DNA of 40,772 bases from positions 1 to 40,772 of IMG/VR virus record IMGVR_UViG_3300045988_051055; one strand, given 5' to 3'. The notes under the pieces are model-generated. The model was not told the DNA's origin. It ran no database searches and saw only the letters and a program-made list of their open reading frames with translations. Each line of letters starts with the position of its first letter. Within the stretch, counting starts at the first letter, position 1. The position numbers and the translations under genes were made by a program. This DNA is from a virus. Below are positions 37,020 to 39,868 of this stretch, one piece after another.

Positions 37020-37682
37020 TTATTTTAGAATTTTTTCGAGATATGCGTAAACATATTCCCCCCACGCTCTTTGCGTCGCGGGGCCGAAGGAGTTATCCAC
37101 ATCCAGCTCATAGCCGCAAGCGTTAAGAAGCTCTTGCAGCTTGCCGACCGCCGCGCCCTTGTCGCCGCGCGTGAGCACGGTCTTGTCCGCTGGATATTTC
37201 GGCACGCCGAAGCCGCGGATATAGCGCCCGTTGATCTCCAGCGTCCGGTAGCCGCACTCATGCTTGCTGCCCTTGTTCCCCTCGAACACATTGACGCAGT
37301 TCCCGACCACGCGCGTCACGATGCCCGTGTGGTTGGGCGCGCCCGTGCAGTCCGTGAGGGCGTAGTCCTTGCGGTCGTTCCAATGGTAGAAGACCTGTTC
37401 GCCGATTTTGGGAACGTGTGCGTCGTCCTCGACCCATTGGCCGCGCGCCTGATACCACCGCATCTGCTCGCCGCAGCTGCACTCGATGGGGAGCACCTCT
37501 GTCAGGCCGCAGAGGATCGCCGCCGCGGACACCATCGCCGCGCAGTAGTCGTCCGAATAGGCGAGCTTGTAGCCGCGCGGGTGCGGGAGGTAGCTGTTGT
37601 AGGCGTCCACGATGCTTTTATGCACCGCATCGCCGCGTACAGCGCCGACCCAGCCCGTCATGGTCTCAAGAAATTTCTTCAT
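37020..37682 (-). CDS. Endolysin: CHAP/NlpC-P60-like catalytic domain plus PG_binding_1-like C-terminus (220 aa)
   Basis: DDYCAAMVS (Cys) and APNHTGIV (His). C-terminal LTRGDKGAAVGKLQELLNACGYELDVDNSFGPATQRA. Lies directly after the holin gene. Confidence 0.85.
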   Translation of the reverse strand: MKKFLETMTGWVGAVRGDAVHKSIVDAYNSYLPHPRGYKLAYSDDYCAAMVSAAAILCGLTEVLPIECSCGEQMRWYQARGQWVEDDAHVPKIGEQVFYHWNDRKDYALTDCTGAPNHTGIVTRVVGNCVNVFEGNKGSKHECGYRTLEINGRYIRGFGVPKYPADKTVLTRGDKGAAVGKLQELLNACGYELDVDNSFGPATQRAWGEYVYAYLEKILK

Positions 37683-37854
37683 TTTTGCGTTTCTCGGTCT
37701 GCGTGCCGAAGTAGAAGGCGATGATGGTCGTGAAGATCGTCAGAAACTCCGTCCCGCTGATGCTGCCGCGCAGGGCAAGCACCGAGAAAACCGCCGTGAG
37801 CACGATGGTCACGATGCTCTTGACTGTGAGAAGATTGGCAATTCGATTTTGCAT
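37666..37854 (-). CDS. Holin (62 aa, two TM segments, charged C-terminus)
   Basis: LLTVKSIVTIVLTAVFSVLAL and FLTIFTTIIAFYFG, followed by TQTEKRKNEEIS. AAAGGAGG RBS. Overlaps the endolysin start. Confidence 0.75.
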   Translation of the reverse strand: MQNRIANLLTVKSIVTIVLTAVFSVLALRGSISGTEFLTIFTTIIAFYFGTQTEKRKNEEIS

Positions 37855-37865
37855 TTCTGCCTCCT

Positions 37866-38573
37866 TTACAGAAACCGCACGGCGTAAAATTGCCGCGTCT
37901 GTGTGTTGATCTTGTTACACGCGCCGTTGATGGCGGCGACGTGCCCGCCGTCGAGCATGACGGCGTATTCCAGCTTGAGCTTGTCCCGACAAAAGGCGTT
38001 GACCTGCTGCGCGGTCATGTTCTTGCAGTACACGCCGTAGAGCAGCCCGCCCTTGTAGCCAAGGACGGTGTGGTTGGTCTTGCGCAGCACATCGGAGTAA
38101 GCGCCCACAAAGCCCTCCGCCGCGGGGGCATAGCGGTCAAGCAAGCCAAGCCCACCGACCGCCCACACGACGCCGCCCAGCGCCGCCGCCGAGGACACGC
38201 GGGCCATGCGCACCGCGCCGTCCGTGGTCTTGTAGAGCACGCTCTCGGGGCGAGGATAGTGACAGCTCATGCCGCGCACGACCTTGCCGCCGCGCACCAG
38301 GATGGAGCAGGGCTGCCCCTGCCAAGAAAAGCTCCCCGAGATGGCGTTTCTCGGCAGCGGCCCGCTCATGTTGACGGGCTCGATGTCCCGCGCGATAATG
38401 CAGGGCTGACCGTACAGCTCGACGTTAAGCGGGAAGCAGTCTGCGCCGAGCTTGGCCGCGATGTCGCTCAAGGTCTGGTTGCCGATCCAGCCGTTGTCCA
38501 GCGCCCCGACGGAGCGCTGGATGGCGCGGATCATGCGCACCTCTTCCGAGGTAGCGCCCTTGACGTCTCTCAT
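37866..38573 (-). CDS. Second wall-active enzyme candidate, phosphodiester-glycosidase (NAGPA/DUF2233)-like (235 aa)
   Basis: ATG at 38573 follows GGGAGGTAA. The C-terminal YAVMLDGGHVAAING resembles the LDGGGS motif of that family. Assignment is from memory. Confidence 0.55.
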   Translation of the reverse strand: MRDVKGATSEEVRMIRAIQRSVGALDNGWIGNQTLSDIAAKLGADCFPLNVELYGQPCIIARDIEPVNMSGPLPRNAISGSFSWQGQPCSILVRGGKVVRGMSCHYPRPESVLYKTTDGAVRMARVSSAAALGGVVWAVGGLGLLDRYAPAAEGFVGAYSDVLRKTNHTVLGYKGGLLYGVYCKNMTAQQVNAFCRDKLKLEYAVMLDGGHVAAINGACNKINTQTRQFYAVRFL

Positions 38574-38875
38574 GACATTACCTCCCACTCGTCGATCTCG
38601 CTTTTGATGCGGTCAATAAAGCTGTTGCCGCCGAGGGCCTTGTAGCCCCGATAAAGGTAGATGAAATCCTCAAGCTCATACTGGCGGATCGTCTGGCTCT
38701 CGCGGTGCTTGTAGTAGGTGTGCAGCATGTCGTGCCGGAGCTGGCATTTGAGCGCGTCGGTCAGCTTGTCCAGCCCGAGCAGCTTGTTGCGCAGCGGCTT
38801 GACGAGCATGGCGACCGCCGCGAGGATCACCGTCACCTCCGAGCACAGCGCCGCCAATTTCGATAAACTTTCCAT
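38570..38875 (-). CDS. N-terminally TM-anchored protein at the head of the lysis cassette (101 aa)
   Basis: TM segment LAALCSEVTVILAAVAMLV. ATGA coupling to the next gene. Confidence 0.5.
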   Translation of the reverse strand: MESLSKLAALCSEVTVILAAVAMLVKPLRNKLLGLDKLTDALKCQLRHDMLHTYYKHRESQTIRQYELEDFIYLYRGYKALGGNSFIDRIKSEIDEWEVMS

Positions 38876-38903
38876 AGGCGTTGTCTCTCTTTCCGGCGGC
38901 GCG

Positions 38904-38937
38904 AAAAAAGCCGCCTTGTCGTGCTTGACAAAGCGGC
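38904..38937 (-). terminator. Terminator of the toxin mRNA
   Basis: Minus strand reads GCCGCTTTGTC-aagcac-GACAAGGCGGC (one G-U pair), followed by TTTTTT. Confidence 0.7.
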
Positions 38938-38954
38938 TTTAGGTGTGCTATATT
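38925..38954 (+). promoter_or_regulatory. Promoter of the antisense (antitoxin) RNA
   Basis: TTGACA (38925-30), 18-nt spacer, TATATT (38949-54). Confidence 0.75.
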
Positions 38955-38960
38955 TAGGCC

Positions 38961-39057
38961 AGTAAGAACGGCTGCCATTGCTGGTGGCGGTCGTCCCTCA
39001 GTGAGTTTATAGCTCGAAGGAAACGCCGCTTACCGCTATGGTGGGCGGTTATTTCTT
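38961..39057 (+). ncRNA. Candidate antisense antitoxin sRNA (~100 nt; a read-through form could end at 39249)
   Basis: Runs from the promoter above to the terminator CCGCTTACC-gctat-GGTGGGCGG plus TTATTTCTT (39026-39057). Complementary to the 3' UTR and the last codons of the toxin mRNA. Confidence 0.6.
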
Positions 39058-39138
39058 ATGTCTTGTGACCGTGAAGATCAGAGACGCAAGACCGATGAGC
39101 ACAAGCGAATATGTGAACATATCAGCGTATGTAACCAT
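39049..39138 (-). CDS. Type I toxin-like hydrophobic peptide (29 aa) MVTYADMFTYSLVLIGLASLIFTVTRHKK
   Basis: Hand-translated. AAGGAGGTG lies 5 nt upstream and is buried in the hairpin CACTTCCT-GCAA-AGGAGGTG. Single TM plus a KK tail, as in holin-like toxin peptides. Confidence 0.7.
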   Translation of the reverse strand: MVTYADMFTYSLVLIGLASLIFTVTRHKK

Positions 39139-39192
39139 CGCGCACCTCCTTTGCAGGAAGTGGACAACCTTGCCGTTCTTACCGGCAGGCGA

Positions 39193-39222
39193 ATTATAGC
39201 ACAGTCTGCCGCGCTTTGTCAA
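39193..39222 (-). promoter_or_regulatory. Promoter of the toxin mRNA
   Basis: Minus strand TTGACA (39222-17), 18-nt spacer, TATAAT (39198-93). Confidence 0.75.
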
Positions 39223-39225
39223 TTT

Positions 39226-39249
39226 GCCGCCTTCCGAGGCGGCTTTTTT
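39226..39249 (+). terminator. Plus-strand terminator at the far side of the toxin locus
   Basis: GCCGCC-ttccga-GGCGGC followed by TTTTTT. Confidence 0.7.
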
Positions 39250-39508
39250 ACTTGTTCAGCTCTATGAGCTTAGCTGCAACATCCTCCGGGATGTGGCACT
39301 TCTCCTTCTTGACGCAGTAGCCGTTCTCATCGTAGGTGAGCTTGTACTGCGGCAGGACGTAGATCTCCGTGCCGGCGCGGGAAAGGTCGCGCGCCATGAC
39401 GGGCTGCACGATGCTGTTCTTGACACCCGCGCTCTCGCTCAGGCCCGCGGGAATGTCCGTGACCTCGATGGGCTTGCCGTCGGATGCGATTCTCTTGTAA
39501 GTAGCCAT
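39248..39508 (-). CDS. Hypothetical protein (86 aa)
   Basis: ATG at 39508 follows AAGGAGAAC. Begins MATYKRIASDGKPIEVTDIPAG. Confidence 0.6.
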   Translation of the reverse strand: MATYKRIASDGKPIEVTDIPAGLSESAGVKNSIVQPVMARDLSRAGTEIYVLPQYKLTYDENGYCVKKEKCHIPEDVAAKLIELNK

Positions 39509-39868
39509 AGTTTTGTTCTCCTTTTCTTTGTTCAAAATTTATTTATCATCGGCGTAGCTTTCGCCGGTGATCTCCTTGATGCTGGATTTTCTTATGCTGA
39601 CCATGATTTAGCTCGTCAAAAAGGTTTGCAGCGCGTTCCGCGTCTCCGCCACATGTTCGCGTGCGCGTTCGGCGTAGGTTTTCTTCATGTCACTTCTCCT
39701 CCATCAAAAGAATTTTCGTGGCGTGTTCTGCGTCCTCAAGCTGCGCCCGCAGAGGCCATGACATTTGGATTGAAGATTATGCCGCACCGCCTTTTGTGAA
39801 ATGCGACGAAGCAACGTTAGGAGCTGCCCCCGGATTTTAGCATGCTAAAGTTGTACATATTGCACTCC

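Follow-up and report, generated by a model that had tools for sequence, protein, structure and literature searches.

The window analysed here is a 40,772-nucleotide (nt) stretch of viral DNA (IMG/VR record IMGVR_UViG_3300045988_051055), and the element under study is a 346-base segment at 38904-39249, between a tail-side gene of 95 amino acids (aa) and a lysis-side gene of 101 aa. This element is likely to be a self-contained type I toxin-antitoxin (TA)-like cassette, in which a minus-strand mRNA encodes a 29-aa hydrophobic peptide and a convergent small RNA (sRNA) is complementary to the 3' part of that mRNA. It would represent a family that is real, well supported by comparative data and unannotated, yet of a known kind, the type I TA systems that are carried by prophages and built like bsrG/SR4. 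An earlier note on this DNA had described two convergent near-consensus promoters, three terminators, a peptide with one transmembrane (TM) segment and a KK tail, a Shine-Dalgarno (SD) sequence paired in a GCAA-loop hairpin, and four inverted blocks. All of these were recovered.

Searching with a gapped pattern made from the conserved RNA elements showed that the cassette was present in at least 62 IMG/VR loci/contigs and in eight genome contigs of Oscillospirales. The genome contigs came from metagenome-assembled genomes (MAGs) of Oscillospiraceae, from Butyricicoccaceae, Candidatus Pseudoscilispira faecavium and Clostridiales UBA4644, and from a human-gut MAG that carried essentially the window prophage. 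An exact 29-mer search found near-identical cassettes in 32 IMG/VR contigs. When the 57-aa mechanical open reading frame (ORF) of the window was used as the query, divergent versions were found, together with one locus having the same leader and another peptide. A search based on architecture only, over 0.93 Mb of retrieved sequence, returned these cassettes and nothing else.

The toxin promoter TTGACA-18-(TG)TATAAT (39222-39193, minus strand) matched the consensus at 12/12 positions, and the antitoxin (sRNA) promoter TTGACA-18-(TG)TATATT (38925-38954, plus strand) matched it at 11/12; both had the TG extension. In the 19.8 kb of the window that was scanned there were three sites with at least 11/12 matches, including both cassette promoters, and the toxin promoter was the best of them. 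The toxin promoter is predicted to be a strong, sigma-A-type promoter. All 60 unique cassettes (60/60) had a -35 TTGACA and a 10-12/12 promoter on each strand, and the distance between each promoter and the conserved arms was constant, while the spacers and flanks varied. The antitoxin promoter scored 11-12/12 in every unique cassette, with constant spacing to the H1 arm (see below).

The three terminators were found as follows. The toxin mRNA terminator, GCCGCUUUGUC-AAGCAC-GACAAGGCGGC + U6 (38937-38904, minus strand; repeat I3), was recognised by sequence and fold as a 14-bp hairpin (11-14 bp in a separate count) followed by U6, and the -35 of the antitoxin promoter lay inside its stem. The consensus terminator scan missed this hairpin, and negative results of that scan need caution. 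The two plus-strand terminators were found by the scanner. The sRNA terminator (39025-39059; scanner hairpin 39025-39049 + tail) had the U-tract UUAUUUCUU. The outer terminator, GCCGCCTTCCGAGGCGGC + T6 (39226-39249; 39226-39243 + T6 by the scanner), consisted of block I2 at the cassette edge, and its stem was maintained by compensatory T-A to C-G changes in related contigs. It would keep antisense read-through out of the tail genes. Read in the toxin direction, the hairpin came with an A6 tract and lacked a U-tract.

Three to four terminator hairpins in 346 bp might suggest a transcriptional insulator only, that is, back-to-back terminators between late operons with fortuitous promoter-like hexamers. 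We consider this extremely unlikely. Perfect or near-perfect promoters recurred on both strands with fixed spacing in every variant, the ORF was conserved and the long-range helices covaried, and relatives lacking the cassette coped with a 40-nt spacer.

The ORF at 39138-39049 (minus strand) encoded MVTYADMFTYSLVLIGLASLIFTVTRHKK and ended with TAA. The 29-aa peptide had one TM segment (best 17-aa hydropathy window 2.08) and a basic C-terminus (KK). The 29 codons were preceded by AAGGAGGTG, with the SD AAGGAGGUG 6 nt ahead of the AUG, and formed the 3' part of the 57-aa mechanical ORF, whose TTG start was the -35 hexamer itself. Public gene calls (proteins P0001-P0009; window 39049-39222, minus strand) stretched the ORF to 57-95 aa, upstream of the cassette transcription start site (TSS). 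These 57-95-aa "hypothetical proteins" in the databases are probably over-called versions of the 29-aa product.

Four types of small hydrophobic peptide (25-31 aa), all single-TM by hydropathy, were found in one RNA frame. Type A comprised MVTYADMFTYSLVLIGLASLIFTVTRHKK and its variants (29 aa), type B was MSTEATIALLMLVIAAIKLGIDLKK (25 aa) and type C was MTTMEVLTLLLLLAAVIFGILGYIKK (26 aa). The fourth, type D (MGDGRRAKALRFAVCFLMILAVMVYISPKAC), was recorded in a tandem array at locus L076 (Clostridiales UBA4644 contig DHMK01000032.1, reverse strand, ~490-2000), in which four cassettes of types C, A, A and D were arranged head to tail. The same UBA4644 genome had further cassette copies on two other contigs (L075 and L079). 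The ORF was open in 22/22 unique nucleotide versions, and none of the 15 type A versions was disrupted. The ratio of nonsynonymous to synonymous polymorphism (pN/pS) was 0.39 for type A, 0.31 for type B and 0.12 for type C; by these estimates, the ORF is under purifying selection. Three of the four types ended in KK, and the KK-stop nucleotides AAGAAATAACCGCC were invariant in these three unrelated peptides because they also encode the U-tract of the sRNA terminator: UUAUUUCUU is the reverse complement of the toxin KK-stop codons (AAG AAA TAA).

In four loci with GTG-start type A cassettes (L042, L071, L075 and L076), a 2-nt insertion placed the ATG out of frame, where it opened a 22-aa ORF (MWSHMQICLHIRWCSSVLRLWS), and the conserved peptide frame began at GTG instead. 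The out-of-frame ATG may be a decoy start that lowers toxin translation.

The predicted toxin mRNA was ~283 nt long (39186-38904, minus strand), with its TSS inferred at G39186, 7 nt past the -10. Folding of the predicted mRNA (39186-38898) gave -123 kcal/mol, versus -80.8 ± 5.2 kcal/mol for shuffled sequences (z = -8.1). The four inverted blocks were recovered as I1 (38958-72 / 39172-86), I2, I4 and I5. Block I1 formed the predicted helix H1, which joined the mRNA 5' end (5' arm GCCGGUAAGAACGGC, 39172-39186, minus strand) to the 3' untranslated region (UTR; 3' arm GCCGUUCUUACUGGC, 38958-38972, minus strand), and the complement of the 3' arm was the sRNA 5' end. A second helix, H2', joined GUUGUCC (39162-39168, minus strand), directly upstream of the SD hairpin, to GGACGAC (38990-38996, minus strand) in the 3' UTR, within the sRNA target.

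Both helices were examined in an alignment of 24 non-redundant mRNA cores by RNAalifold and explicit pair counting, with pairing partners slid by 1-3 columns as the control. H1 (columns 1-13 with 230-242) showed CG<->UA changes in 6 sequences and AU<->GC changes in 10, and one of its positions was AU in 14 sequences and GU in 10. H2' (columns 22-28 with 203-209) was 100% paired, with CG<->UA changes in 9 sequences. Across the mRNA helices, 99.0% of the cells were paired, versus 35-56% in the slid controls; the covariation score was 0.247 versus at most 0.098; and 49 cells were doubly changed versus 0-11. In the L076 array, the type C and type D cassettes had wholly different H1 arms (GCCAACAGGAATG with CCATTCCTGTTGGC, and GGCGCTGTTGTA with TACAACAGCGCC) that retained their complementarity. 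Near-complete pairing and compensatory changes of this kind bear out a fold-back of the mRNA 5' end onto a 3' site that the sRNA also targets, as had been proposed from the window sequence.

The minimum free energy (MFE) structure of the single sequence paired GGUUGU with AUAACC at the stop codon. This pairing was rejected, since the comparative data favoured H2' (GUUGUCC/GGACGAC) in its place; the window sequence could be forced into H2' for only 2.1 kcal/mol above the MFE. An inverted repeat that serves as an operator at the DNA level was also judged less likely, on the grounds that the arms change wholly between cassette types yet stay complementary, that wobble pairs occur, and that H2' covaries with its arms at unequal distances from the two start sites. 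At L064/L070 (IMG/VR, type C peptide) the arms of the closing helix were mismatched (5' GCCAGTAAGAGCG versus 3' CCGTTCCTGCTGAC), and the 3' arm was similar to that of cassette 1 in L076. This copy looks like a recombinant of cassette lineages and may be defective.

The SD lay in the hairpin CACUUCCU-GCAA-AGGAGGUG (39163-39144, minus strand), recognised by sequence and fold. This anti-SD hairpin was present in 21/21 unique 5' UTR variants (-8.3 to -14.5 kcal/mol) while its sequence changed, for example from CACUUCCU/AGGAGGUG to UCCCCC/GGGGGUGA. In the prediction, the SD had a probability of 0.12 of being unpaired, and the AUG one of 0.003. The hairpin after the stop codon (39022-39060) had A-rich/U-rich flanks on both strands (AAGAAAUAA-hairpin-GUUUCCUUC); as a bidirectional terminator it could give a ~170-nt toxin mRNA without the 3' arms of the closing helices.

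The predicted antisense sRNA was ~99 nt long (38961-39059, plus strand), with its own promoter and terminator and three stem-loops. Its full length was complementary to the toxin mRNA, over a stretch that begins with the last three sense codons (HKK), takes in the stop codon and extends to the 3' arm of H1. Its predicted fold had a z of -3.7 against shuffled sequences. The three stem-loops were present in 20/20 sRNA variants, each being 9-16 kcal/mol more stable than its own reverse complement. RNAalifold found seven pairs with double changes in the sRNA, and the second stem-loop (SL2) covaried heavily. Ten of the 29 sRNA pairs were predominantly G.U, which correspond to C.A mismatches on the toxin strand; such pairs exist on one strand only, and therefore the structure belongs to the antisense RNA alone. 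The convergent antisense RNA over the stop codon and the 3' UTR, part of the original proposal, is thus upheld at the sequence level by the conserved promoter and by covarying, strand-specific stem-loops. The proposed duplex of sRNA and mRNA was also predicted to be highly favourable (cofold -280.9 kcal/mol versus -165.7 kcal/mol for the separate RNAs). When the target region was blocked in the prediction, the probability that the mRNA 5' end was unpaired rose from 0.001 to 0.5.

The strand-specific signs of structure are stronger in the sRNA, with its G.U pairs and the covariation of SL2, and would also fit a cassette that serves chiefly to make a structured ~100-nt RNA, which might for instance regulate host or phage genes in trans, with the small ORF being secondary. 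We regard this as very unlikely, because the ORF stayed open in all versions with pN/pS below 0.4, the SD and the anti-SD hairpin persisted through sequence turnover, and the 5' arms of H1 and H2' lay outside the sRNA yet covaried with its target. Elsewhere in the window, the sRNA 5' seed had no other strong match, and neither a convincing duplicate of it nor a convincing target in trans was found.

The position and mobility of the cassette bear on a further alternative. The gene order on the minus strand was tail and tail-fibre genes, the 95-aa gene, the cassette, the 101-aa gene, a 240-aa gene, a 62-aa holin candidate and a CHAP endolysin. The cassette is thus immediately upstream of the lysis module, and the small ORF might encode a membrane peptide with a phage function (a lysis-timing, holin-accessory or superinfection-exclusion factor) that is tuned by the antisense RNA and stands beside the lysis genes for that reason. 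The upstream hairpin, lacking a U-tract in the sense direction, could let late transcripts enter the ORF, and a weak Hol_Tox match of a sister peptide points the same way. However, among 80 phage loci with the 101-aa gene, the cassette was immediately upstream of it in 47 and missing in 33, and many of the latter retained the upstream 95-aa gene. Several loci without the cassette (e.g., L117, L125 and L155) had the same 95-aa gene, a 40-nt spacer and the identical ribosome-binding-site region GGAAAGAGAGACAACGCCTATG. The cassette also occupied other phage-like positions away from lysis genes (L033/34, L037-39 and L040) and formed the four-copy tandem array; it had its own constitutive-type promoters and terminators, and unrelated peptides were interchangeable in it. 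A phage-function membrane peptide is accordingly an improbable reading. Still, what doubt remains about the TA-like identity falls mainly on a non-toxic phage membrane peptide under antisense control.

As the clean empty sites in syntenic phages and the other phage contexts show, the cassette is a discrete accessory insertion (moron) of ~340 bp and not a part of the lysis module. The identity of the peptide as the phage holin itself was rejected: it had no PHROG or Pfam match, the cassette was missing in 33/80 relatives and occurred in other contexts, and the 62-aa holin candidate (37666-37854) was a separate gene, distinct from the cassette peptide. The GC content of the cassette (0.51) was close to that of its right-hand neighbours (0.50), and therefore gives no compositional argument for a foreign origin.

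Database searches placed the cassette in no known family. A distant-mode blastn search of 38850-39300 against GenBank phages gave no match. The earlier note had suggested a likeness to the "putative holin-like toxin" family and had proposed a search against the Pfam small-toxin models. This kinship was not demonstrated, as the 29-aa peptide had no Pfam match even at E<=10, Hol_Tox (PF16935) and Fst included. The best Hol_Tox score in the cassette family belonged to a type C sister peptide (12.1 bits, E = 0.19; cut-off 23.3 bits). Proteins annotated as "holin-like toxin" are of the TxpA family (PMC2887945). Comparison with TxpA by hhalign gave a probability of 24% over 17 N-terminal columns, with a TxpA profile of only three sequences; the word-indexed search for relatives had yielded three near-identical proteins. 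No matches were found by tblastn of TxpA against phages. An Rfam cmscan of 38500-39700 at E<=10 gave sub-threshold noise only (best 21.5 bits versus a gathering score of 46). The top-ranked literature matches contained no link between type I TA systems and Oscillospiraceae, Ruminococcaceae or Faecalibacterium.

Several points weigh against a type I TA-like cassette. The entire case is built on sequence. Scans of the peptide and its sister peptides against Pfam, NCBIfam, PHROGs and PADLOC gave no toxin model above threshold, and the RNAs had no Rfam match. Many of the cassette contigs stem from one IMG/VR dataset (3300045988). The SD and AUG remained sequestered in every predicted conformer. 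Finally, the covariation of H1 would also be expected if both RNAs merely required the same 5' leader; intramolecular pairing is argued for specifically only by the wobble pairs and by H2', whose arms lie at unequal distances from the two start sites.

The recognised determinants of type I toxin mRNAs in Gram-positive bacteria include an anti-SD hairpin, long-distance pairing of the 5' and 3' ends, and an antisense RNA that overlaps the 3' end (PMC8594479). The experimentally probed bsrG mRNA is 296 nt long, its helix P1 is formed by nt 1-35 and nt 232-262, its SD lies in SL1, and its terminator begins one nucleotide after P1 (PMC3834814). SR4 invades the 3' strand of P1 (PMC3834814; PMC6562991). 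The systems bsrG/SR4 and bsrE/SR5, from the Bacillus subtilis prophages SPbeta and P6, resemble the cassette in being prophage-borne and in having a toxin mRNA of ~290 nt. As in bsrG/SR4, the 5' end of the cassette mRNA pairs with the distal 3' UTR, the SD is held in a hairpin and the terminator directly follows the closing helix. The predicted cassette sRNA is likewise convergent and driven by a separate promoter; it reaches from the 3' UTR into the last part of the ORF and would pair with the 3' strand of the P1-like helix. The small TM peptide with a Lys-rich C-terminus is also shared, as is the swapping of toxins on a conserved RNA scaffold, known from bsrG loci that encode BsrE/H (PMC6562991).

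The cassette also differs from bsrG/SR4 in several respects. No Pfam or Rfam similarity between the two was detected, and the hosts are Oscillospirales gut bacteria instead of Bacillus. The peptides of the cassette family (25-31 aa) are shorter than BsrG, which has 38 aa. In the cassette, the SD hairpin is already 8 bp long, and the KK-stop codons double as the U-tract of the sRNA terminator. The TSS of the sRNA is inside the 3' arm of the closing helix, and therefore the sRNA starts with the same sequence as the mRNA. The predicted sRNA of ~99 nt is wholly complementary to the mRNA, whereas SR4 has 183 nt (PMC3834814).

Other known systems were less close. The txpA/RatA system shares the 3'-overlapping antisense RNA, the sequestered ribosome-binding site and a prophage-like location, and the TxpA N-terminus MSTYESL resembles the M-x-T-Y-x-x-[LM] of the cassette peptide; however, TxpA has 59 aa and carries PF16935, which the window peptide did not match. 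In hok/sok of plasmid R1, a 5'-3' fold-back also closes the full-length mRNA, the product is a small membrane peptide, and the system stabilises a mobile element. However, Sok targets the 5' leader and acts through the translationally coupled mok frame. The antisense RNA of the cassette lies 3' instead, and the cassette transcript, whose TSS is only ~48 nt before the AUG, contained no leader ORF. Moreover, hok is activated by 3' trimming, whereas the SD and AUG of the cassette stayed sequestered after simulated trimming; hok/sok is also a Gram-negative system with no homology to the cassette. The proposed hok-like fold-back was thus retained as a 5'-3' closure, but hok/sok gave way to bsrG/SR4 or bsrE/SR5 as the nearer analogue.

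Prophage modules of Clostridioides difficile (e.g., CD0977.1/RCd11) are likewise of type I and carried by prophages of Clostridia, and their small TM toxins have charged C-termini (PMC6563280). A role in the maintenance of mobile elements has been proposed and shown for the C. difficile systems (PMC6563280; PMC7699646). Their toxins have 34-59 aa (PMC6563280), versus 25-31 aa in the cassette family, and the two were compared by description. In fst/RNAII (par of pAD1), the convergent transcripts also meet at a terminator just past the toxin stop codon and the peptide has ~30 aa; in par, however, contact between the RNAs is made by direct repeats at the 5' side that lie beyond the overlap, whereas the complementarity in the cassette is continuous. 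The closest known design is that of bsrG/SR4 (or bsrE/SR5), ahead of hok/sok; this is a likeness of architecture, and homology is not implied.

From its sequence and the comparisons, and in the later steps by analogy with bsrG/SR4, txpA/RatA and hok/sok, the type I TA-like cassette would work as follows. A ~283-nt mRNA for the 29-aa single-TM peptide would be made from the strong promoter and would close on itself, its nt 1-15 and nt 19-25 pairing with two sites in the 3' UTR in a helix like P1 of bsrG. With the SD and AUG in local hairpins, the message would be poorly translatable and would have no free 5' end. The convergent promoter would give the ~99-nt three-hairpin sRNA, whose complementarity begins at the last codons and extends to the closing helix's 3' arm. 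The sRNA-mRNA duplex would be cut by RNase III, on the model of B. subtilis systems (PMC6562991). The sRNA may also displace the mRNA 5' end from the clamp and expose it to a 5' exonuclease, so that the toxin message would stay low in lysogens. If the cassette were lost or its transcription stopped, the sRNA would decay first, and the stable folded mRNA would outlive it and be translated into a peptide that may damage the membrane. The likely benefit would be that the prophage is retained, or that other phages are excluded by an abortive response.

A more far-reaching version may be put forward tentatively, and we think it doubtful: the cassette could be a plug-and-play RNA chassis whose antitoxin acts by 5'-end mimicry, and it might gate read-through into the lysis genes. 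The sRNA 5' end would then compete with the mRNA 5' end for the same site in the 3' UTR, and this mimicry would free the mRNA 5' end for the exonuclease besides making an RNase III substrate. At least four unrelated peptides would have been swapped on this chassis, with the KK-stop fixed by its encoding of the sRNA terminator U-tract. Facing the lysis genes across a single terminator, the cassette might gate read-through, such that loss of the antitoxin would lead to lysis or abortive infection.

The window was a circularly permuted phage genome with genes for the large terminase (TerL), an SPP1-type portal, the major capsid protein and a large serine recombinase. The source phage is a siphophage of Oscillospirales in the human gut, and it is temperate, as the serine recombinase shows. 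Its nearest relatives were uncultured human-faecal phages, and the nearest cultured phage was Blautia phage Montmirail (TerL identity 56%).

Two genes without an assigned function, the 101-aa and 240-aa genes (37866-38875, minus strand), lay between the cassette and the holin candidate. The 101-aa protein had a hydrophobic N-terminal segment and belonged to phrog_4105 (unknown function). The 240-aa protein had a sub-threshold match only, to NAGPA (phosphodiester glycosidase), and is possibly a second wall-degrading enzyme. The 12/12 toxin promoter (39193-39222) was directed straight at the lysis genes, with the toxin terminator and 28 nt in between (38875-38937). This leaves no space for a separate lysis promoter, and therefore late transcription must cross the strong toxin terminator; conversely, in lysogens this terminator must stop read-through into the lysis genes. 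Relatives without the cassette had a hairpin without a U-tract at the corresponding position before the lysis genes.

Type I TA systems are hard to detect because their toxins and RNAs both evolve fast. To our knowledge, the curated type I families come almost all from Proteobacteria, Bacilli and C. difficile. No new principle is demonstrated by the cassette, whose design closely parallels bsrG/SR4. What the cassette family would add is a new host clade, namely type I TA-like systems in uncultured Oscillospirales and in their human-gut temperate phages, with enough natural variation for covariation-supported structures of both RNAs. The family may serve as a natural experiment in how toxins are exchanged while the RNA scaffold stays fixed, as a marker of the accessory (moron) content of gut phages, and as a compact kill switch for Clostridia that is controlled by RNA and possibly portable.

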